DNA from: an uncultured Gammaproteobacteria bacterium
GTDB taxonomy: Bacteria; Patescibacteriota; Microgenomatia; Levybacterales; UBA12049
DNA: 64,000 nucleotides
Direction of reading: 5' to 3'
NCBI GenBank assembly: GCA_964503265.1
Contig: CAZCYO010000003.1
Coordinates: forward strand, 23,740-87,739
Positions 4,786-37,975 of this stretch are shown piece after piece. The notes under the pieces are model-generated. The model had not been told where the DNA came from, searched no databases, and saw nothing but the letters and a program-made list of their open reading frames with translations. How positions within the stretch are numbered: position 1 is the first letter of the stretch; every line of letters begins with the position of its first letter. The translations under genes were made by a program, and so were the position numbers.

Positions 4786-4927
4786 TACCTAATCGCTCAG
4801 GACTAATAAGGTGGGAAGGATTTGCCCTGCTTAGGCAGGACGATCCTACTATCTATAATCAAGAAATTAATCAAGGAAGGATCGCCCTCGACAGGACGAG
4901 TCCTAATTATAATTAAATAATTAATCA
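4786..4927 (+). repeat. two decayed tandem copies of a tRNA-Ser 5'-half-like unit (~55-65 bp) immediately upstream of tRNA-Ser(GGA)
   Basis: GGTGGGAAGGATTTGCCCTGCTTAGGCAGGACGATCC...AATCAAGGAAGGATCGCCCTCGACAGGACGAGTCC...AATCAAGGAAGGATCGC then the true tRNA. The motif AATCAAGGAAGGATCGC occurs twice. A shortened relative, GGTGGGACGATC...AATCAGGGAGGGATCGC, precedes tRNA-Ser(CGA) at 1268-1304. Confidence 0.6.
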
Positions 4928-5014
4928 AGGAAGGATCGCATAGTGGTCTAGTGCGCACGCTTGGAAAGCGTGTGTCGCCGCAAGGTGACCGGGGGTTCGA
5001 ATCCCCCTCCTTCC
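4928..5014 (+). tRNA. tRNA-Ser (anticodon GGA)
   Basis: GGAAGGATCGCATAGTGGTCTAGTGCG-CACGC-TTGGAAA-GCGTG-variable arm-CGGGGG-TTCGAAT-CCCCC-TCCTTCC-G. All arms pair. Confidence 0.8.
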
Positions 5015-5138
5015 GCCGCGTCGGAGCTCAGCTTAACCGTTTCGTCAGCCTGTTGGCTGATTGCACTTTTCAGTTGGTTCCTCCTCTTTAACTTAGCGTA
5101 GCAAAGTTAGAAAGAACAACTAAAACAACAAAAAGACT

Positions 5139-5166
5139 CCATATTTCAGGAGTCTTTTTTATTTGA
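5139..5166. terminator. bidirectional rho-independent terminator (AAAAAGACTCC-loop-GGAGTCTTTTTT)
   Basis: An 8-bp stem AGACTCCT/AGGAGTCT flanked by an A-run on one side and a T-run on the other. It lies between the 3' end of tRNA-Ser(GGA) (+) and the 3' end of the hsp20 gene (-). Confidence 0.7.
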
Positions 5167-5178
5167 AAGCAGTCAGAC

Positions 5179-5583
5179 TTATTTCGTCTTTACTGTGATC
5201 TTCTTGGGTTGTGTCACTGGAGATTTCGTGAAGGTTATTCGCATTACTCCATGGACACTTTCTGCCTCTGGTTCGCGGGTTAGATCTAACTCTCCGGGAA
5301 CTGCAACACGGTATGAGAAAGAACTCGTTGCCTTGCGGTAGAATTTTTTTTCTTTTTCTTCCTCAGCTATTTCACCTTTAATCCAGAGTACGCCTTTATC
5401 AAATGTTATCTCAACATGTTTCGGATCGACTCCGGGAAGCGCTGCTTCAACATATACGTGTTCGTTATCTTCTGAAACAGTAAGCCCTGTCGGTGAGGTG
5501 AAACTCATCGTATCATCCTCATCAAGAAGGGTACGAAACTGTGGAAATGTGAAGAAAGATCGTGGAAGTATATCATTGTTCAT
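5179..5583 (-). CDS. Hsp20/alpha-crystallin family small heat-shock protein
   Basis: 134 aa. Alpha-crystallin domain signature ...YVEAALPGVDPKHVEITFDKGVLWIKGE...SFSYRVAVPGELD...VHGVMRITF. Confidence 0.85.
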   Translation of the reverse strand: MNNDILPRSFFTFPQFRTLLDEDDTMSFTSPTGLTVSEDNEHVYVEAALPGVDPKHVEITFDKGVLWIKGEIAEEEKEKKFYRKATSSFSYRVAVPGELDLTREPEAESVHGVMRITFTKSPVTQPKKITVKTK

Positions 5584-5788
5584 CTATGTATCACCTCCTT
5601 TCCTAGATTAAATATCTACAATTTGTGATGTCACGATGGTAATCGGGACGCCGTTGTAACAATAATTAGCAATACTATACAACGACTGCTAATTTTTGTC
5701 AAGAGGGTGTGTCTTGAGGAGGGAGAATCAATTTCGCTATTATAACAATTGACGGGATACTATTTCTTTACTACTATCTATACAACAT

Positions 5789-6739
5789 ATGTCCGATCAA
5801 TCAGGAAAAGAGGGAGAGCAAGGAGCACATAACTTAGCTAAACAGCCAGATAGTAAGATTCCAGAAGCGTCGCAACCAGGAGAAAAGCAAGTAGATAATC
5901 TTCATGGCAGTCAAGAAGGCGAGAGTACTAATGAAGCAAGTATCTTAGCTCATGCACTTGATCCACTTGAAGTACTCGCATCTCCATTAGAAAGAGAAAA
6001 ATTACTGTATGTACTCTCAACTATTGGTCGTGCACAAGATGCTATAACAGCTGCCTTTCCACAGTTAGGAGGAGATTATCCGTATAAAGCCTTTATGAAG
6101 GTTGATCCAACTCTTAAAAAGCCTCACGCTAGTTTTCTAAATTACAGAGGAGTAAAAGTAATTGTTTTAGAAAGTCCTACAGATTACACATCGGATGGTT
6201 TTGGAGATGAGGTAGTAGCATCACCTTTTTCAGAAGAGACTCAGTATAAAAGGGATATAGTATCTCTTTATGCGATGCTTCACGAAGTGGGAGGACATCT
6301 GACGTATGACCATATCACAAATCCTGATAATCTTCCTACAACTCCAGACTATTACAATACTATTGATGCAGCAGTGAGTGAAGGATTTGCTGTTATGACA
6401 GAATTAGCAGTAGTAGATAAAATTATAAATGGAACAGTTCCAGGATTTACTGCAGAAGAAAGAGCTGCTTTGTCTCAACTACGAGCAGAAAGACTTAACA
6501 GTTCTTATCTAACCGGTCTTCATGCAAACGAAAACGCGTATGGAGAAGGGCATACTATCATGCAAAACGTGTATGAGAAAGGTGGTATGGATGGAGCGCT
6601 AGATTTTATAGGACAGTTAGATTCATACAAAACCAGAGGTGTTTCTCGTGGAGTACCTCACTATCGTCAATCACTTATTACTGGAGATTCAGAAGAATTT
6701 CTTGGCTTCTTTCAAAAACCTTCAGATGAAGAAGTATAA
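5789..6739 (+). CDS. hypothetical protein (contains HEVGGH, a non-canonical HExxxH motif)
   Basis: 316-aa ORF with an acidic, low-complexity N-terminus and no TM segment. MLHEVGGHLTYDH resembles a zincin motif but with the wrong spacing. Confidence 0.4.
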   Translation: MSDQSGKEGEQGAHNLAKQPDSKIPEASQPGEKQVDNLHGSQEGESTNEASILAHALDPLEVLASPLEREKLLYVLSTIGRAQDAITAAFPQLGGDYPYKAFMKVDPTLKKPHASFLNYRGVKVIVLESPTDYTSDGFGDEVVASPFSEETQYKRDIVSLYAMLHEVGGHLTYDHITNPDNLPTTPDYYNTIDAAVSEGFAVMTELAVVDKIINGTVPGFTAEERAALSQLRAERLNSSYLTGLHANENAYGEGHTIMQNVYEKGGMDGALDFIGQLDSYKTRGVSRGVPHYRQSLITGDSEEFLGFFQKPSDEEV

Positions 6740-7587: not shown

Positions 7588-8280
7588 ATGCATCTTTTCG
7601 ATTTGCTGTTTCCGAAAAAGTGTGTGAGTTGTGGTTCGTTTGGGTCATATATTTGTAGCAATTGCTTTGCCAAAATATCGTTTGAAGTGGAGTCTATTTG
7701 TGTAGAGTGTAACAGAGCTGCAATCGATGGGATAACCCATCCTGGATGTAAAAAACGATATTCACTTAACGGCGTATTATCGAGCGTGAAATATAATGGT
7801 GTGATGAAAAAAGCACTGTATAGATTTAAATACGCACCATATATAAAACAAATCGAGACAGTGTTAATTGAACTTTTTTATGAAGGACTCATCCAAAAAG
7901 AATTGTTTCATACGTTGCGCCTGAAGAACGCTGTATTTGTCCCTATTCCGCTTCATCCAGAAAAACTAAAAAGTCGAGGATATAACCAGGCAGAAATTTT
8001 AGCAAATGGTATCGCAAAAGAGATGGGAATGGAGAGTAAAAACGTATTATATCGACAGAAGAAAACGCAGTCGTCATTTACGTTGACCCGCGAACAAAGG
8101 CAGAAGAATATCGATGAGGCATTTGTTATAAAAACAGATGTGGTGCTGACTCCCGATATGACGATACTGTTAGTTGATGATATCGTGACGACAGGTGCGA
8201 CGCTTAGTGAAGCGGCAAAACTACTTAAAAAGAATGGCGTAAAAAGTGTGTGGGGAGTGACGCTGGCTCATGGGAAGTAA
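7588..8280 (+). CDS. comFC: ComF family protein (ComFC-type double zinc ribbon plus phosphoribosyltransferase domain)
   Basis: N-terminal CVSCGS...CSNC...CVECN..GCKK zinc ribbons. C-terminal PRTase signature ILLVDDIVTTGATLSEA. Confidence 0.8.
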   Translation: MHLFDLLFPKKCVSCGSFGSYICSNCFAKISFEVESICVECNRAAIDGITHPGCKKRYSLNGVLSSVKYNGVMKKALYRFKYAPYIKQIETVLIELFYEGLIQKELFHTLRLKNAVFVPIPLHPEKLKSRGYNQAEILANGIAKEMGMESKNVLYRQKKTQSSFTLTREQRQKNIDEAFVIKTDVVLTPDMTILLVDDIVTTGATLSEAAKLLKKNGVKSVWGVTLAHGK

Positions 8281-9726
8281 TTATTTCCCCTGGCATTCTG
8301 TTCTCACAACAGGAATAGTATCTTTGTGTATGGCTTTGGCTAGCTTGCATGTTTTTATGATATTTATTCGTACATCGGTATTTGATGGATTTAATTTTTT
8401 GGCTTTTTGGAACTCTGTGAGTGCTTTTTCTGGCTCAAAATATACGAAGTGAATAAGACCTAATTGATTATGTTTTTCTGCACTTTCGGGAAGAAGATGA
8501 AGCTCTGTCCAGAGGGTAGGAATGTAGTTTTTCCAACTCATAAGTGCTTTAGGTGTTATAAAGGCGTAGTAGCCAAGTAAGCAAACTATACAAGATAGTC
8601 CGAGTACCTGGAAGTACCGGGCAATATATCTTCGGGGAGTACTCTTTACTAGGTGGGAAAACACTGTAGAGATCGTCAGGCTTGCTCCAAAAGATGCGAT
8701 AACTCCGTATCTTCCCCATAGCGGTTGGTTTTGGAATGCAATGCCCACAAGTGGCATGAGGCTTAGGAAAAACCAGATAATTCCAAATCCGATAAATGAT
8801 CGCCTGCGATATAGCCATACGCCAATCACAAAAAACAACAGAATAATTAGACTGTAGACAATCATATCTGGCTGAAATGGCGAAAGAGTAGGGTTTTGTG
8901 ATGTGGCAAGGGTTAGCTTTTTTTGAATAGCTTGAGCTGTGGGTTCTGAGGGGGGAAGGGGGAAAAAAGACGTCGTAATATATGATCCAGCGCCTTCAAT
9001 AATGATTGCGAACTTCTCTAAGATATGACTAAAAAAATCTCCACGATTACTCATATGCACAATTCCTTCGCGAACGATTAAATAGAAAAATGGGATAGAA
9101 ATAATAGAAGCGCCAACTCGTTTCGATATTTTTTCACTATGAAAATGAATATAGATGAAAAAAAGAAGAGGAAGACACAGTGTTATTTCGTACGTAAAGT
9201 ATGCAAGGGAAGAAAAAAAAAGTGTAAGAGAGAGAAATACTTGTGTCTTTTTTTCAAGTAATAGTTGAAAACAAAAAAATGATATAAATGCGAAAAGAAC
9301 ACCCAGTGTGTCAAAGCTAGCAGTGAGATTGGCGACATTATCGACATGCAGAGGCAGAAGTCCGTATATGAGTGCAGTCATGGCTGCTAAGAGATACGTA
9401 TCTGTAAGTTTTTTGGTGATGAAATAAACCAGAATAATACACAGAATATAGATGGATAAGGCTTGCATGTGATAAAGAAATAAATTGGTATGGAAGAGTT
9501 GGTAGCTTATAACGTATGCCAGTGCCCGCACCGGACGATACACGCCCTCATGAGTGTATGGCGCGTCACCCATGAGAAGTTGCGGAATATGGTGAACATC
9601 ATGAATCGCGTCCCACGTAAACAGAAAATCAATTTCATCATACAGAAAGGGAGTGTTAAAAAGAGGGAGGAATATAACGATCACAAAAGCACAAATCGCA
9701 ATAAGCGTGAGGATATCTTTCTTCAT
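8281..9726 (-). CDS. GT-C-type membrane glycosyltransferase-like protein (PMT/TMTC-like) with C-terminal TPR
   Basis: 481 aa, polytopic. N-terminal loop with a DE motif (FLYDEIDFLF) typical of family 39/83-like GT-C enzymes. C-terminal TPR-like LTEFQKAKKLNPSNTDVRINI. One of three paralogous GT-C/TPR proteins in the window. Confidence 0.55.
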   Translation of the reverse strand: MKKDILTLIAICAFVIVIFLPLFNTPFLYDEIDFLFTWDAIHDVHHIPQLLMGDAPYTHEGVYRPVRALAYVISYQLFHTNLFLYHMQALSIYILCIILVYFITKKLTDTYLLAAMTALIYGLLPLHVDNVANLTASFDTLGVLFAFISFFCFQLLLEKKTQVFLSLTLFFSSLAYFTYEITLCLPLLFFIYIHFHSEKISKRVGASIISIPFFYLIVREGIVHMSNRGDFFSHILEKFAIIIEGAGSYITTSFFPLPPSEPTAQAIQKKLTLATSQNPTLSPFQPDMIVYSLIILLFFVIGVWLYRRRSFIGFGIIWFFLSLMPLVGIAFQNQPLWGRYGVIASFGASLTISTVFSHLVKSTPRRYIARYFQVLGLSCIVCLLGYYAFITPKALMSWKNYIPTLWTELHLLPESAEKHNQLGLIHFVYFEPEKALTEFQKAKKLNPSNTDVRINIIKTCKLAKAIHKDTIPVVRTECQGK

Positions 9727-9785
9727 TCTACTATATTACTAGGAAAATGATTGTGGTGAGAAGGGAGACATACTTCGTCATAAAA

Positions 9786-9813
9786 AAGCCGCCGGGGTTA
9801 GCCGGCGGCGGGG
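9786..9813 (-). terminator. GC-rich rho-independent terminator for the minus-strand GC-rich cassette
   Basis: Plus strand AAAAAAGCCGCCGG-GGTTAG-CCGGCGGC. On the minus strand an 8-bp GC stem is followed by TTTTTT. Confidence 0.7.
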
Positions 9814-9845
9814 TAGACACATGTGAGGCTGTGTCTCGTGCCTTT

Positions 9846-10169
9846 TTACGGTTGTGAAGGTGGTGGTTGGACCCATGAGACTCGTACGATTTCGTCGAGT
9901 GGGAACTCGCTCGTGTACGAGACGAAGGGAGACAACCGACCTTCTAGAGACGAGATGACGAGTAATCCTGTTTCTGCTTCAATGACTTTTCCGACGTGGA
10001 TCACGTCGTCTTCGAGATTGAAGTAGAGAGCGATCGCTCCTGGAGCTGGTGTTTCCAGTTCTTCAAGTTCGCCACGTAAGAATAACCCCATGACGTGGTT
10101 ATAGTAGTATGTGGATCCGAGAGCGTAGGAAGCAGCGTCTTTATCTGCTGATGCAGATCCGTCAGTCAT
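9846..10169 (-). CDS. hypothetical protein (GC-rich cassette A, gene 3)
   Basis: 107-aa ORF. Local GC is clearly higher than the ~40% background. Confidence 0.4.
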   Translation of the reverse strand: MTDGSASADKDAASYALGSTYYYNHVMGLFLRGELEELETPAPGAIALYFNLEDDVIHVGKVIEAETGLLVISSLEGRLSPFVSYTSEFPLDEIVRVSWVQPPPSQP

Positions 10170-10294
10170 CTTGAACCTCCTGGTGTTATGAGCGCTTCGG
10201 GAACGGGATATCGCGAAGATCAGCGACCTCGCCCTTTAGGGCAGACTGCGTGATGCGGCGAACCACACTGTAGTGGTAGCCCTTCATCTGCTCT

Positions 10295-10549
10295 TCAACG
10301 ACTCCCACGCATTGTCAGGCGATACTGCCTGGAGGGCGCAGGGTTTGAAGACGTGGGGTAGTCATTGAATGGGAGTTCTTGTTGCCATGACTGCAGGTAG
10401 CCTTTCCGAACCAAACTCTCAAGCTCACTAGTCGCAAAGCGGCCGCGAATCTTCCAGTTAATGGTTCCTTCGGTGAAAGTGCCGCTATTGAAAGCAGCGT
10501 CTTGACATGCTCGGAGGACTTCTTGTTCGCCTGGTGTAAGATCATCCAT
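10295..10549 (-). CDS. hypothetical small protein with LuxR/sigma-70-region-4-like N-terminal helix-turn-helix (cassette A, gene 2)
   Basis: 84 aa. LTPGEQEVLRACQDAA resembles the LTxRExEVL HTH start of LuxR/FixJ and sigma region 4. GC-rich. Confidence 0.35.
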   Translation of the reverse strand: MDDLTPGEQEVLRACQDAAFNSGTFTEGTINWKIRGRFATSELESLVRKGYLQSWQQELPFNDYPTSSNPAPSRQYRLTMRGSR

Positions 10550-10565
10550 CGACGCCTCCTTCGTA

Positions 10566-10910
10566 CTATTGTTCGAGCAGCTTCACGGTGGAGTCTGCCC
10601 GAGCCATGATTTCTGCGTGGAAGGCTTTCGCCTCCTGCGCCGCATCGTGTTCGAGAAGAGCATCCAGCCAGAGGGGGACTGTAGCGTAGAGAATCTCACT
10701 CACTGAGAAGGGCATACGAAGTGTGGTTACATGATCGTCAATTGATTGCATCATGTGCAAGACGAAGCCGCCCACAATTCGTCCCTGTCCGGCGAGCTCT
10801 GCGAAGCGTGGGTAGAGATCATCTACCAGTTTCGTAGCAGAGATGACGCTGGTTAAGCGCCTGATCATCTCCTCCCGATCCGGAAGGATTACACGAATGT
10901 CACTTGGCAT
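10566..10910 (-). CDS. hypothetical protein (cassette A, gene 1)
   Basis: I chose the start at MPSDIRV because a GAAGGAGA Shine-Dalgarno lies 7 nt upstream. GC-rich. Confidence 0.4.
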   Translation of the reverse strand: MPSDIRVILPDREEMIRRLTSVISATKLVDDLYPRFAELAGQGRIVGGFVLHMMQSIDDHVTTLRMPFSVSEILYATVPLWLDALLEHDAAQEAKAFHAEIMARADSTVKLLEQ

Positions 10911-10957
10911 AGGGTATTTCTCCTTCTCTGATTCAGGCTTATGCGTATCCAAATGGA

Positions 10958-11046
10958 TAGCATCTTAGGTAAGAATGAATTCCTGCCCAAAATGCTATCC
11001 ACAAAGGATTTAATTATTTCCGCAAACTGTAAAAGTGCAAAAAAAA
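10958..11046 (-). promoter_or_regulatory. upstream control module of cassette A: 10-bp inverted repeat TGGATAGCAT...ATGCTATCCA plus conserved TTTGCGGAAAT and TTTTGCAC-TTTACA motifs
   Basis: Same architecture and near-identical motifs as the region upstream of cassette B (13533-13625). Confidence 0.5.
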
Positions 11047-11154
11047 GATCTATAGTACAACAAATACGCATATGTATTGAAGTACTCTAGTTATAGCGGG
11101 ATTATAGCATTATGAAAGACGCACGGTCAAACTATAGGGCTAAAGATTGCATGT

Positions 11155-11391
11155 TTATATGAAATGTTTATTTCTGAAGGCGAAGCCTGAGTTAGTTTTT
11201 AAGTAATCTTCAAATAAAACTGCTTTTTCTTTGGACTGAAAAGCAGCATAGAAAATTAAAATGAAAGGTCGTAAATTTTTTGTTGAAGCTACAGAACCTT
11301 CTGTATGAGCTTTTATGCGGTTCTTGAGATTAGAAGAATATCCATGATAAAACGTTTTATCTTTAAGTTGGAGTATGTATACATAATACAT
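11155..11391 (-). CDS. GIY-YIG nuclease family small protein
   Basis: 78 aa. MYYVYILQLKDKTFYHGYSSNLKNRIKAH is a canonical GIY-YIG module (YVYIL..YhG.T.NL..R...H). Confidence 0.8.
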   Translation of the reverse strand: MYYVYILQLKDKTFYHGYSSNLKNRIKAHTEGSVASTKNLRPFILIFYAAFQSKEKAVLFEDYLKTNSGFAFRNKHFI

Positions 11392-11399
11392 ATTCTCAG

Positions 11400-11442
11400 T
11401 GTATCAAAATGAAAAATGCCCCACTTCGTCCGCCAGTTGGCG
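11400..11442 (-). terminator. rho-independent terminator downstream of ssrA (nested hairpin plus U-run)
   Basis: Minus strand: GCCCC-UAACGUA-GUCCGCC-AACU-GGCGGAC-GAAGU-GGGGC-AUUUUUCAUUUU. Confidence 0.6.
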
Positions 11443-11540
11443 GACTACGTTAGGGGCACCCTTCGCTACTATTTTCAAGCCATTTTTTTAGGAGTGTGGC
11501 CTGCCACTCCGTAGCTCATCCCGTTAGGGTATGAGCGAAG

Positions 11541-11970
11541 GGTGGAGATGTCCGGGAGCGATCCGGAGTCCGAAATATATTTTTAAAAACATCTACAAGC
11601 GTAGTCACAATTTATAGTGTCGTCTGAAACGTGTTCGAGTGACGGAATTTTTCAGACCTAGATCTCTTAATACCACGAAAGTCGAAATCAGTCTCTCTCG
11701 CTGTTTTCCTAACTGTTTTTAGGTCGTTACTTCCACGTTAGGGAGGAAGTAGGACTGTTCAAAGAGCTCGGGTCTTAAGCAGCAAGTGCGAAAGATTGAG
11801 GTGCGAATGCACCGTCAAAAGCGGATTGAACTCCGTCAGCTGCCTTGAGGGCGAATTGACGGACGCTGCGCATTGAGTCAGCATTTATTTTTTGATAATG
11901 TTTTACGACAACTTATCAATGTCGGCTTGCAGTTTTTAAAGAACGTAAATCGTCGAATCAAATCATCCCC
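11541..11970 (-). ncRNA. ssrA: tmRNA (SsrA), ~430 nt
   Basis: The 5' end, GGGGATGATTTGATTCGACGATTTACG, is near-identical to the canonical tmRNA 5' end GGGGCUGAUUCUGGAUUCGACGGGAUUUGCG. The 3' end reads GGAC-TCCGG-ATCGCTC-CCGGA-CATCTCC-A-CC, and the acceptor GGGGATG/CATCTCC includes the G3:U70 alanine identity pair. An internal reading frame ends ...GCA CTT GCT GCT TAA (…FALAA*), the typical tag terminus. The gene lies immediately downstream of smpB. Confidence 0.8.
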
Positions 11971-12146
11971 AAGCAAAAATCAACTATGATTGTTATTTGC
12001 GAACATTGATTTTTCAAATTCGAATATCGAAATCCTAAACTCGAAACTCCACTTCGTTCAAGAACTTCGCGGAGCAGGCTTTTTTGCTTGCCACTCCGTA
12101 GCTTTAGCGAAGGGTGGTTTCGTATTTCGTGCTTTGGTATTCGGAT

Positions 12147-12590
12147 TTAATATTTTCCCTCAGTATATGCATCTTCTATCTCGCGTGCGATATCTCTATT
12201 TTTTATGGCTTCTTTCTTTTCAAAGGCTTTTTTCGATTTCGCGATACCGAGTTCTGCTTTAATGAGGAGACGTGTAGTATACACCGATATAGGCACGATT
12301 GTCAAGTTTGACCCGTCCATTTTAGCCTTGAGAGAGAGAATTTGTTTCTTATGAAGTAGCAGTTTTCGAGTCCGTTTCGGGTCGTAATTTTCCTGTCTGG
12401 AATTAACATACGGAAAGATACTCGCATTCATTAAATACGCTTCATTTCCACGAATTCTCGCAAAGCTTCCCGTCAAATCTGCATGACCATTACGGATAGA
12501 TTTTACCTCAGCCCCTGTGAGCATAATCCCAGCCTCAAAGGTTTCAAGGATTTGATAGTCGTAGGTTGCCTTTTTATTCACAATTTTCAT
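12147..12590 (-). CDS. smpB: SsrA-binding protein SmpB
   Basis: KKATYDYQILETFEAGIMLTGAEVKSIRNG...LLLHKKQI matches the SmpB signature. Confidence 0.9.
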   Translation of the reverse strand: MKIVNKKATYDYQILETFEAGIMLTGAEVKSIRNGHADLTGSFARIRGNEAYLMNASIFPYVNSRQENYDPKRTRKLLLHKKQILSLKAKMDGSNLTIVPISVYTTRLLIKAELGIAKSKKAFEKKEAIKNRDIAREIEDAYTEGKY

Positions 12591-12684
12591 GAGAGTATGA
12601 TACCTGAAAAAAGGCTAAGAGCAAAGAGGACAGCTAATGGCATAAGGCTCGCTTCTCTTTATGGCTTATGGGTATACATGAGAA

Positions 12685-12720
12685 GACCCCGCTCCGGCGA
12701 ATGCCGAGGCGGGGTCTAGG
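12685..12720 (-). terminator. GC-rich hairpin at the 3' end of cassette B (weak terminator)
   Basis: GACCCCGCTCCGG-CGAATG-CCGAGGCGGGGTC. There is no clean U-run, so the call is weak. Confidence 0.4.
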
Positions 12721-12751
12721 GTGCGCGTTACTTGCGGAAAGTATTTAGCGA

Positions 12752-12910
12752 CTTAGGAAGAAACAAACGAGCCCTGCGAGCTCGAATGGGATGGATAACA
12801 CTACGAATGTTGATCCTCCAACGAGGAGGAAAAGAAACGAGAAGAGAATGCCTGCACAGACGCACATTGCGCCGGCAGCGGTCATGCTAGATTTCCAGGC
12901 CTTCATCGAT
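12752..12910 (-). CDS. possible small membrane protein (53 aa), cassette B
   Basis: GC-rich short ORF MKAWKSSMTAAGAMCVCAGILFSFLF... This is my own translation of the minus strand. It is below the 60-aa cutoff of the ORF track. Confidence 0.25.
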
Positions 12911-12981
12911 GATCTCCTTGCCGCTTGAAAGCGGTGTTATCTATGATCTGTCGAGGATCGTCAGATGTACTCCTTCTCCCG

Positions 12982-13494
12982 CTATGCGGGCCAGTTAATG
13001 AAGTCATCGGTCCAGAGAGGGATTTTGTGTGTGAAGACCCTCCAGAAGTCCTCTTTGGTAGAATTCTCCATTTCCCTTTCCCTAGGCGTTCGAAGATCGA
13101 TCCGCCTGATCAACATAGCGTTGCTACCCCAATTGATGAACTCGCCCTGCTTTGCGATATCGTCCAGCGCGTTTAGCGCATTATGACGGGTGATCTCAAA
13201 GAAGGTTCGGCCCTCGGTTGTGCCTGAGGATGTAGCCCAAGCAATCATGGTAGCAGGGTTGTGTAGTCGCAACATACCGTAGATCGAGATGTTGTTTACA
13301 GCTTCGCACTCCTGTGCAGTGATATATGATGTTGCCACGAGCAGAGATTTCCGCTCACGGTGGGCCGCGATCACGCTGCTGGGAAACGAAATGTATCGTG
13401 CTTCTTGGCGCATGTAGCGCTGATAGGTGAGGATATCGAATCCTCGATTCACCAGGTCTGCGATGAACTCATTCCAAGGAGTTGTCGACATCTT
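12982..13494 (-). CDS. hypothetical protein (cassette B main gene)
   Basis: I chose the start at MSTTPWNEF because a GGAAGGAG Shine-Dalgarno lies upstream. GC-rich. No recognisable motif. Confidence 0.4.
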   Translation of the reverse strand, partial: KMSTTPWNEFIADLVNRGFDILTYQRYMRQEARYISFPSSVIAAHRERKSLLVATSYITAQECEAVNNISIYGMLRLHNPATMIAWATSSGTTEGRTFFEITRHNALNALDDIAKQGEFINWGSNAMLIRRIDLRTPREREMENSTKEDFWRVFTHKIPLWTDDFINWPA

Positions 13495-13532
13495 TGTGCT
13501 CCTTCCGTGATATAGGGGTTTAATAGACGACT

Positions 13533-13625
13533 TTCTAGCTTGAGTGATTATCAAGCCACAAAGTCGTCTATTAAACAATTAATTTCCGCAAATCCCGATT
13601 ACATCGGGAAAAATTGTAAACGTGC
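13533..13625 (-). promoter_or_regulatory. upstream control module of cassette B: 16-bp perfect inverted repeat TTTAATAGACGACTTT...AAAGTCGTCTATTAAA plus TTTGCGGAAAT and TTTTGCAC-G-TTTACA motifs
   Basis: Perfect 16-bp inverted-repeat arms separated by ~27 nt (which contains a smaller inverted repeat). The flanking motifs are shared with cassette A. Confidence 0.5.
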
Positions 13626-13739
13626 AAAATACAAATGTGGCTTGGGGTAGGCAGTAAATGAGCCTATCCAGGCTGCAAATGTAGAAGGGAATTGTAGCAA
13701 AAAAGAAGAGAAAAGTCAAATGCTATAGGACTATTTAAA

Positions 13740-13935
13740 TGATGGTTTTTTTACCAGATGATCTGGTGCATCTGGTGGCTTCTGGGTGTTTTGAGGCTAA
13801 ACTGGGCTTTTTCACCAGTTCATCTGGGCATCTGGATTGATCTGGTGATTTAGCCTCGGGATCTGGTGGAGTTGTGGTCATAAAAAGGGTACCAGATGGG
13901 GTTTCTGGGTGTGATTTGGTGACTGGCTATGCATG
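13740..13935. repeat. cluster of short CATCTGGTG / CACCAGATG iteron-like repeats in a ~450-bp non-coding stretch
   Basis: accagatgatctggtgcatctggtgg...caccagttcatctgggcatctggattgatctggtgatt...gggatctggtggag...accagatggggtttctgggtgtgatttggtgactgg. At least 8 copies in both orientations, including the palindrome CACCAGAT-GATCTGGTG. Confidence 0.6.
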
Positions 13936-14052
13936 TATGCGAGGATTCTTGGGAGGCTTGTCTGCTGAATCTTTGCGAAGAGGTGGAGTGGTAAAGGAGT
14001 AATCGTATAGATTCCCGATCAGGTCGGGAATGACAGTAAGTAAAGCATGAAA

Positions 14053-32624: not shown

Positions 32625-32800
32625 GTGTTGGAAAAGTATAGGAAATCACGATGAAATTTCGTGACTGTGCCGCAACTGTGAAAGTCAGAAAACTATACTT
32701 AAGTCGTTTCATTCCCGAGCAGGAGTATTCAAGTATAGTAATCTTGTAATCCTTCTTAGGAATTGTTTTTTCTAAAGAAGGATTTTTTGTAAGAATTCTC
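32625..32800 (+). promoter_or_regulatory. cobalamin riboswitch-like leader (compact variant) with intrinsic terminator, upstream of pduO-type gene
   Basis: GGAAATCACGATGAAATTTCGTGACTGTGCCGCAACTGTGAAAGTCAGAAAAC contains the CCGCaACUGU core and an AGUCAG B12-box-like element. Followed by the terminator TCCTTCTTAG...CTAAAGAAGGATTTTTT (32757-32797). Confidence 0.5.
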
Positions 32801-37901: not shown

Positions 37902-37975
37902 GGGTGTGTAGCTCAGTGGTAGAGCGCGACTCTTATAAAGTCGATGTCCTTGGTCCGATCCCAAGCACACCCACC
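37902..37975 (+). tRNA. tRNA-Ile (anticodon UAU by hand folding)
   Basis: GGGTGTG-TA-GCTC-AGTGGTA-GAGC-G-CGACT-CTTATAA-AGTCG-ATGTC-CTTGG-TCCGATC-CCAAG-CACACCC-A-CC. All stems are Watson-Crick. Positions 34-36 read TAT. Confidence 0.65.

Follow-up and report, generated by a model that had tools for sequence, protein, structure and literature searches.

A structured palindromic repeat at the 3′ end of a Patescibacteria tmRNA gene and its association with a GIY-YIG gene

We analyzed the sequence around ssrA, the gene of transfer-messenger RNA (tmRNA), in a 64,000-nucleotide stretch of contig CAZCYO010000003.1 (the window), where an earlier note had found three copies of a short motif and read them as possible integration scars at an attachment (att) site. 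All three copies belong to two units of a conserved family of structured repeats. The unit keeps a fixed register to the 3′ ends of genes for alanine-accepting RNAs, and the one behind ssrA forms, together with the adjacent gene of a GIY-YIG nuclease, an indel relative to the nearest relatives. We consider it reasonably likely that the motif copies belong to a Patescibacteria family of palindromic, hairpin-forming elements and are not the products of an integrase. The element is probably mobile, similar to the repetitive extragenic palindromic (REP) and REPIN sequences, and coupled to the GIY-YIG gene through a mechanism that we infer. Coordinates are window positions, the genes of the locus lie on the minus strand, and the loci of relatives are numbered from L001 onward.

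Results

The motif copies are parts of two units

In the sense of ssrA, the motif CCACCCTTCGCT…AGCTACGGAGTGGC has copies at 11545→11499 and 12117→12086, with an inverted half of 12 nt at 11457-11468; the three sites that the earlier note had placed at about these coordinates are all present. The sequence AGCGAAGGGTGG is exact at 11534-11545 and 12106-12117 (plus strand) and recurs with one mismatch on the opposite strand at 11456-11467, and the 12-nt half CACCCTTCGCTA (11457-11468) matches the copy between smpB and ssrA (12105-12116) exactly in inverted orientation. Similarly, GCCACTCCGTAGCT is exact at 11503-11516 and 12090-12103, within a wider direct repeat (11499-11516 and 12086-12103) matching at 17 of 18 positions. 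As an exact 12-mer is expected only ~0.008 times in 64 kb, counting both strands (2 x 64000 / 4^12), the repeats are not due to chance. A pattern search and a covariance model found no further copies in the 64-kb window.

The long and the inverted copy together form one unit, copy A, composed of a hairpin M1, a small GTGGC/GCCAC hairpin P3, an A/U-rich linker, the box GAAGGGTG, and a second hairpin M2. The short copy belongs to a degenerate unit, copy B. The parts are as follows.

11540..11970, minus strand: ssrA, the tmRNA gene (Rfam RF00023, 105.8 bits, full length)
11414..11548, minus strand: copy A, the full composite trailer unit of ~130 nt (11545→11414; covariance-model R1 match, 110 bits)
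11534..11544, minus strand: long-range helix P1, 5′ strand (CACCCTTCGCT), which doubles as 5′ arm of M1 (11-bp complementarity to 11457-11467)
11504..11533, minus strand: variable inner stem-loop of M1 (self-complementary) and M1 3′ arm (CTACGGAGTGG)
11496..11507, minus strand: small hairpin P3, GTGGC-AG-GCCAC (paired in 11/11 aligned sequences)
11457..11467, minus strand: box AGCGAAGGGTG, the 3′ strand of P1 and the "inverted copy" (sequence match, alignment, RNAalifold)
11406..11456, minus strand: hairpin M2 and a terminator-like U-run (stable fold, covarying stem pairs)
12047..12117, minus strand: copy B, between smpB and ssrA, a degenerate doublet of 71 nt (motif matches and a weak covariance-model match)

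Read in the ssrA sense, copy A runs from CCACCCTTCGCT through the inner CATACCCTAACGGGATG to AGCTACGGAGTGGCAGGC, and copy B from CCACCCTTCGCT through AA to AGCTACGGAGTGGCAAGC. The short copy had been described as the long one minus 17 nt; it is shorter, but more precisely two nucleotides (AA) take the place of the 17-nt inner stem-loop. Copy B holds a minimal M1 (12117→12091, CCACCCTTCGCT-AA-AGCTACGGAGTGG) and an M2-like hairpin (12074→12047, CTCC-GCGAAG-TTCTTGAA-CGAAG-T-GGAG), lacks the box, and matches the covariance model weakly (12042-12120, 13.9 bits, E 0.63). Single M1-like hairpins are also present in the smpB-ssrA spacers of L048 and L054.

Copy A starts within the last bases of the tmRNA (CCAC). 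The end of the tmRNA reads …GGACATCTCC-A-CC and then C at 11540 (acceptor 3′ strand CATCTCC), so CCA is not encoded. Because the tmRNA as delimited by Rfam ends at 11540, the repeat is 3′ flank and not, as had been claimed, the tmRNA 3′-terminal sequence: the overlap is just 5-6 nt, CCACC(C) at 11545-11540, and the remainder is trailer. The inverted copy is real as a site, but it is a half-site only, the 3′ strand of a conserved long-range helix. It is located just upstream of the terminator-like hairpin and is paired within that hairpin in the fold predicted for the window itself.

Two further observations concern similar sequences. Two 11-mers resembling the M1 5′ arm (CCACACTTCGT and CCACGCTTCGC) are found at 10716-10726 and 10801-10811 (minus strand) inside a 128-aa open reading frame (ORF) of a GC-rich cassette downstream, and such matches number six across the window, where shuffles give an expectation of 0.4. 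Copy B is enclosed by an AT-rich palindrome (…CGAAATACGAAA / TTTCGAGTTTAGGATTTCGATATTCGAA…; 12118-12146 and 12016-12046), which is also present in L008 (1150-1290) and has a similar sequence inside an insertion of the L033 23S rRNA (4860-4960); it looks like a second repeat family.

Conserved fold of the composite unit

Wherever the "CAGGCC" form of the motif has a downstream partner, the composite has the same layout as in the window. The first half reads […TCCAC]C-CTTCGCT-[hairpin]-AGCTACGGA-GTGG-CAGGCCAC and is followed by an A/T-rich linker, and the second half reads box GAAGGGTG – YCCC-TAACGTAG-[hairpin]-CGAAG-TGGGR. The box is complementary to CACCCTTC, and in the window the resulting helix P1 comprises 11 bp (11544-11534 with 11457-11467), its 5′ strand including tmRNA positions 72-76. 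The variable base of this strand is tracked by the box, which is GAAGGGTG, GAAGTGTG, or GAAGAGTG.

The inner stem-loop of M1, in the window CATACCC-TAAC-GGGATG closed by GCTC/GAGC, is different in every locus and yet almost always self-complementary, indicating that the M1 arms are the base of a hairpin. As P3 shares GTGG with the M1 3′ arm, it represents an alternative pairing; by pattern search, a P3-type site is unique within the window. M2 in the window is CCCC-TAACGTAG-[TCCGCC AACT GGCGGA]-CGAAG-T-GGGG, followed by CA and TTTTTCATTTT. Together with TTTTTCATTTT it looks like a terminator; a simple terminator scan did not list it, presumably due to its internal loop. In all composites, M2 resembles the reverse complement of M1 (CCAC-T-CCGTAGCT…AGCGAAG-GGTGG vs. 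CCCC-T-AACGTAGT…GACGAAG-TGGGG).

We evaluated the fold using an alignment of 11 composites (the window and 10 others) from lineages whose SmpB proteins are 38-69% identical. In the long-range fold model, 97.8% of the cells were paired, in comparison with 36-49% in slid controls. P1 (CACNCTTC / GAAGNGTG) was paired in 11/11 sequences, as was P3, and eight core pairs of P1 were 100% paired; the variable position of P1 is C-G in six, A-U in three, and U-A in two sequences. Stem pairs of M2 covary (UA:7/CG:4, plus others), and both sides have changed in the inner M1 pairs 15-38 and 16-37. RNAalifold independently predicted the long-range fold and kept eight pairs with double changes. The alternative M1 hairpin was 89% paired and, because it shares strands with the P1/P3 fold, the two are mutually exclusive. 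The trailer region of the window (11400-11580, 181 nt) has a stable fold (z = -5.1).

A scan of 11300-12200 against Rfam 15 with E up to 1 returned only the tmRNA and a subthreshold match to the permuted tmRNA. A remnant of a permuted or two-piece tmRNA was rejected, the match scoring only 19.3 bits against a cutoff of 47 and being explained by the hairpin after CCACC.

The unit follows alanine-accepting RNA genes across Patescibacteria

To find the element elsewhere, 185,579 species-representative genomes were scanned for the two arms with 0 to 30 free bases between them. The scan returned 28 loci with the same 25-nt arms and a variable, self-complementary center, mostly labelled as Patescibacteria (Saccharibacteria, Uhr-, Woese-, Berkel-, and Nomurabacteria, and others). 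About six of them carry the labels Gammaproteobacteria, Pseudomonadales, or Weeksellaceae, which we suspect to be binning errors. A metagenome scan with AGCTACGGAGTGGCAGGCC added 10 further loci, and the variable center is self-complementary in most of the ~40 copies. The 25-nt arms are identical across Patescibacteria classes in which SmpB is only 38-65% identical. One metagenome-assembled genome has at least six copies on six contigs. The copies are mostly intergenic and in either orientation to the neighbor genes, with a few inside long ORFs, and solo hairpins are dispersed in other genomes. No match to the motif was found in IMG/VR viral contigs. The earlier note had set its scar model against an abundant, generic repeat, and this holds in part: the family extends across Patescibacteria, with only two units in the 64 kb.

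The composite form is located directly 3′ of the tmRNA in the window, L048, L049, L051, L053, L054, and L055-57, and directly 3′ of tRNA-Ala in L017/L037, L033 (UGC anticodon, inside the 16S-23S spacer), L038/L046 (CGC), L043 (GGC), and L013/L028 (CGC); it is also found at the convergent tRNA-Ala(GGC) of L020. In total, we count composites behind the tmRNA of six lineages and behind about six genes of tRNA-Ala in a variety of Patescibacteria, and none of the ~20 non-alanine tRNAs in the loci studied is followed by a composite. Where CCA is encoded (L033, L013, L028), the unit starts after it (TCCACCA followed by CCCTTCGC); the acceptor end thus provides the CCAC of M1 in every case.

Two loci with M1 hairpins contain duplicated tRNA ends. 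In L016 (1326-1506), the 3′ end of tRNA-Ser (GAATCCCACCTCCTCCG) is duplicated ~70 nt downstream of the gene, and the duplicate is followed by CCA and a solo M1. In L024 (4740-5020), a tRNA 3′ end (CCCGAGGAGCCA) is present in three direct copies, beside a tRNA with an intron, a GIY-YIG gene, and an M1 in inverted orientation; these copies resemble a genuine att-type duplication more closely than anything in the window does.

The unit and the GIY-YIG gene form an indel

We aligned orthologous smpB-ssrA loci, a comparison proposed in the earlier note, after retrieving them by SmpB homologues of 92% (L001-L006), 86% (L007), and 80% (L008) identity. The features bearing on the comparison are as follows.

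12147..12590, minus strand: smpB, 147 amino acids (aa) (Pfam SmpB, E 1.7e-48; synteny with relatives)
11155..11391, minus strand: GIY-YIG nuclease gene, 78 aa, UPF0213 type (Pfam PF01541, E 3.8e-15)
11143..11539, minus strand: segment absent from L007, L001, and L008, composite and GIY-YIG gene, 397 nt (alignment, BLAST)
11023..11142, minus strand: counterpart of the L007 ssrA terminator and cassette promoter/leader (73% identity to L007 6996-7115, E 2e-11)
9779..10952, minus strand: GC-rich cassette (GC 0.51-0.55) with a strong terminator at its end (composition)

In all three closest relatives, the tmRNA ends …CATCTCCAC(C/A)C and leads directly into a simple terminator, and the motif is absent from their loci. 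According to BLAST and MAFFT, the 397 nt of the window from 11539 to ~11143, containing the unit and the GIY-YIG gene, have no counterpart in L007, L001, or L008, and the junction of the indel falls exactly at the tmRNA 3′ end. The earlier reading is borne out to this extent, but without the att duplication. The terminator and promoter/leader of L007 (6996-7115) align to window positions 11142..11023, beyond the GIY-YIG gene, and the hairpin of the L007-type terminator is no longer complementary in the window. On the other side of ssrA, copy B and its M2-like tail (12117→12047, 71 nt) stand where L008 has 65 AT-rich nt, with conserved spacer sequence on either side. Among the relatives, the regions on both sides of smpB-ssrA are hypervariable, and the one downstream of ssrA is different in all three.

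ssrA itself is 87.6-88.7% identical to that of L001 and L007. ARAGORN made no call for the window tmRNA, despite the Rfam score. The tag-coding region contains ~71 extra nt, and our by-eye reading implies an unusually long tag of ~35 aa, ending …FALAA.

The ORF at 11391..11155 encodes a single-domain GIY-YIG protein whose nearest solved structures are the UPF0213 proteins 1zg2 and 1ywl (96-107 aa). By eye, the catalytic Tyr, Tyr-x-Gly, Arg, Glu, and Asn are conserved in eight homologues; the 78 aa contain no separate DNA-binding domain. Homologues of 67-78% identity are located 550-720 nt downstream of smpB wherever upstream sequence was available. The order smpB-ssrA-composite-GIY-YIG is found in L048, L049, L051, L053, L054, and six of the 10 contigs L055-L064, and smpB, ssrA, trailer, and GIY-YIG gene also follow each other in a complete Roizmanbacteria genome. 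The composite precedes the GIY-YIG gene in every locus examined. Behind tmRNA, the unit is always followed by the 78-aa UPF0213 GIY-YIG gene; the tRNA-Ala-linked composites occur without it. In L020, the composite is followed by the GIY-YIG gene and then by the convergent tRNA-Ala trailer; in L052, a direct repeat TTTCYGAAATGT-CCAC… encloses a composite, a GIY-YIG gene, and another M1, with no tmRNA or tRNA nearby. Just after M2, TAnnnT boxes can be recognized by eye 6-7 nt before the ATG or GTG, which suggests a leaderless expression of the GIY-YIG gene.

The relationships among the GIY-YIG proteins do not match those among the SmpB proteins. Window and L054 are 69% identical in GIY-YIG and 38% in SmpB; for L052-L054, the figures are 78% and 42%. 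Between L055 and L057 (951-1906), a block of 956 nt containing ssrA, trailer, GIY-YIG gene, and part of the next gene is 98.8% identical, and the same ssrA-trailer-GIY-YIG block is 99.4% identical between L056 and L057. Beside the L055/L057 block, identity falls to 81% in smpB, and the spacers between smpB and ssrA are unrelated; the L055 spacer carries a tandem array of AAAGTCAT. As sequence patterns, the mismatch and the block would fit a recombinational transfer, and strong constraint combined with ordinary exchange could produce them as well.

GC-rich cassettes and other neighboring features

The earlier note had placed a GC-rich foreign cassette and the GIY-YIG gene together downstream of ssrA. 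The GIY-YIG gene is within the indel, but the cassette is not tied to the repeat. We rejected the cassette as a part of the repeat insertion, as L007 has the same promoter/leader and the same last gene behind ssrA, without the repeat or the GIY-YIG gene; the last ORF and terminator are 77% identical between the window (10186-9779) and L007 (7666-8075). The cassette proteins had no Pfam, PHROG, or NCBIfam matches. Among 5.8 billion database proteins, the 107-aa protein has just one homologue, and the 114/128-aa protein has only remote, unannotated homologues of ~100 aa.

Such cassettes flank smpB-ssrA on both sides (GC 0.50-0.55 vs. about 0.40), at 9779-11142 and 12600-13740 in the window, 4869-5870 and 6996-8075 in L007, and 1-660 in L008; a similar one is present upstream of smpB in the window, L007, and L008. 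They share the promoter/leader (TTGCACnTTTACA…TTTGCGGAAATwA, a long hairpin, and GGAGG) and strong terminators, and their inner ORFs differ between the relatives. Unrelated loci repeatedly have small CCCGAT-nnnn-ATCGGG hairpins in their leaders and spacers (window ~13590-13610 and ~14020-14040; L007 ~5005 and ~5050; L017 ~620-640; L020 ~455 and ~515).

The next syntenic gene downstream is ComF-like (7588-8280). Between it and the cassette, the window encodes a 481-aa membrane protein with a TPR repeat (8281-9726, minus strand), which neither L007 nor L001 has at the corresponding place; in L001, a GH16 gene takes this position. Elsewhere in the window, we found a tRNA-Ile (anticodon UAU, 37902-37975) and an AdoCbl-II riboswitch (32626-32703).

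Discussion

Under the reading that we favor, the unit would be co-transcribed as a 3′ trailer of the tmRNA, with copy B transcribed behind smpB, and its fold may set or protect the 3′ end of the transcript. M2 and its U-run would replace the ancestral ssrA terminator, and the promoter of the neighboring, leaderless GIY-YIG gene seems to lie within M2. At the DNA level, the unit would behave as a selfish element of the REP/REPIN type, settling at the 3′ ends of alanine-accepting RNA genes (tmRNA and tRNA-Ala). Unit and UPF0213 GIY-YIG gene may be gained, lost, or exchanged by recombination, which would explain their absence from the closest relatives, and the GIY-YIG protein may be linked to the maintenance or movement of the element.

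Several points weigh against this reading. Co-transcription, termination, and processing are steps that we infer from the sequence. The covariation is limited to a few columns, as most helix positions are invariant, and since all compensated pairs are Watson–Crick, RNA folding and a conserved DNA inverted repeat are indistinguishable. The loci were found via the motif or via the GIY-YIG gene, and both the alanine specificity and the GIY-YIG linkage therefore carry an ascertainment bias. This genome has only two units in its 64 kb, unlike classical REPs, and there is no target-site duplication at the indel, the junctions CCACCC/TTCGCT and GCAATCTT/TAGCCC sharing nothing. The GIY-YIG protein, a single domain of 78 aa, differs from known homing endonucleases by having no DNA-binding domain. 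Finally, the wide conservation of the order smpB-ssrA-trailer-GIY-YIG is likewise compatible with vertical descent plus losses in the clade of the window.

An integration-scar model, with an integrase-driven island in the ssrA 3′ end and the motif copies as duplications of the att core (attL, attR, and relics), is largely refuted, and we regard it as very improbable. tmRNA genes are known integration targets and, as in integrase islands at tRNA and tmRNA genes, the DNA that the relatives lack begins right at the tmRNA 3′ end, and the downstream region is different in all three. However, the repeat and the tmRNA have only CCACC(C) in common, and neither the last 20 nt (up to three mismatches) nor the last 14 nt (up to two) of the tmRNA has a second credible site in the 64 kb. 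A Pfam scan of 17 of the larger ORFs between 415 and 18653 found SmpB, GIY-YIG, TPR, ComF-like, HSP20, SpoIID, or nothing, with no integrase or recombinase domain; this includes the nine ORFs tested within ~6 kb of ssrA, none of which has a recombinase domain. The direct copies bracket ssrA from outside the gene and not an island, the inverted copy forms one strand of a helix that is kept in lineages with different neighbors, and the composite also follows tRNA-Ala inside rRNA operons. In contrast to known islands, the insert is 397 nt long and no gene-internal duplication is seen. A phage origin was rejected as well: besides the lack of the motif in IMG/VR, the trailer has no match in GenBank phages, and the GIY-YIG and cassette proteins have no PHROG matches.

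Two other explanations retain the structured unit. The trailer could be a functional, vertically inherited part of the precursors of alanine-accepting RNAs, serving 3′ processing, quality control, or termination, with the GIY-YIG gene as a conserved operon partner and both lost from the relatives. The unit invariably has sense orientation and keeps its register on the acceptor 3′ end, has been seen only behind tmRNA and tRNA-Ala, and contains a covarying P1 that starts at positions 72-74; the gene order recurs in many lineages, the complete Roizmanbacteria genome among them, and the GIY-YIG protein is strongly constrained, with its catalytic residues conserved. Nevertheless, we consider this explanation unlikely. 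The unit is dispensable in the three close relatives, L016, and elsewhere, where a plain terminator follows the tmRNA, and solo hairpins are scattered between genes and inside some ORFs in either orientation. Further points against vertical descent are the arms that are identical among such divergent SmpB lineages, the disagreement of the GIY-YIG and SmpB relationships, the 99%-identical block adjoining an smpB of 81%, and the L052 unit away from any tmRNA or tRNA. The other explanation is a homing-type cassette, in which the UPF0213 GIY-YIG protein would cut empty alanine-acceptor 3′ ends or hairpin DNA, and double-strand-break repair would copy trailer and gene into the empty allele and co-convert ssrA, leaving solo hairpins as decayed or hitch-hiking derivatives. 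In favor of such a cassette are the variable presence among relatives, with a junction that is clean and falls at a target of high conservation, the composite before every examined GIY-YIG gene of the subfamily, the intact catalytic residues, the protein relationships that disagree, and the L055/L057 pattern, which resembles co-conversion. Yet the protein lacks a DNA-binding domain, tRNA-Ala-linked composites lack the gene, the common target would be only ~6 nt (TCCACC), and the L055/L057 block could come from ordinary homologous exchange; to our knowledge, no UPF0213 protein is a homing enzyme. We hold this explanation to be even less likely than vertical inheritance.

The closest described class of element is REP/REPIN, GTAG-tagged palindromes often arranged as inverted dimers and found downstream of genes and sometimes inside them (PMC3733652). 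The element of the window shares the short, imperfect, hairpin-forming palindromes (M1, M2; 20-40 bp in REPs), their pairing in inverse orientation, the location mostly downstream of genes, where it is plausibly transcribed, with occasional copies within genes, and an associated gene flanked by repeats. Where the inner stem has its foot, the window carries ACGTAG in M2 and CCGTAG on the complement of M1, which may correspond to the (C)GTAG tag; in other lineages, this position has GAAG, GCAG, or GAAA. The element differs by the low copy number here (two units in 64 kb), the extra outer stem and long-range helix, the strict register of the composite on the tmRNA or tRNA-Ala 3′ end, and arms identical across bacterial classes, and its linked gene encodes a UPF0213 GIY-YIG nuclease instead of a RAYT (IS200/IS605-type Y1) transposase. 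Rickettsia palindromic elements and other MITEs (miniature inverted-repeat transposable elements) are likewise selfish, hairpin-folding palindromes, tolerated in genes and near RNA genes and variably present among relatives; here, in contrast, no target-site duplication is seen, the 11-bp inverted repeat is not terminal but internal to a larger fold, and the sites are preferentially alanine-acceptor 3′ ends. Among free-standing GIY-YIG homing genes, SegB of phage T4 is located in a tRNA cluster (PMC2330249). The proximity to RNA genes, the presence/absence polymorphism, and a possible co-conversion tract are common to both systems, but the protein studied here is a UPF0213/YhbQ-like catalytic domain only. 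We know of no site-specific activity for a UPF0213/YhbQ-like protein.

The element is undescribed in Rfam 15 and in the literature searched (GIY-YIG with tmRNA/tRNA, REP/MITE in Patescibacteria, and YhbQ/UPF0213). A rather unlikely but conceivable extension is that the composite and the 78-aa UPF0213 GIY-YIG protein make up an undescribed, alanine-acceptor-specific system, either a GIY-YIG-driven REP-like element homing to the 3′ ends of tmRNA and tRNA-Ala or a precursor trailer with a dedicated nuclease for tmRNA maturation or trans-translation. More generally, a motif beside ssrA that resembles an att scar can be a structured repeat, and island finders using tRNA and tmRNA ends should not call such sites. 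If the coupling between unit and nuclease is functional, it would provide the first testable substrate for UPF0213 proteins, and it would represent a new mechanism of mobilizing REP-like elements or a new step in the maturation of tmRNA and tRNA-Ala in organisms with reduced RNase repertoires.

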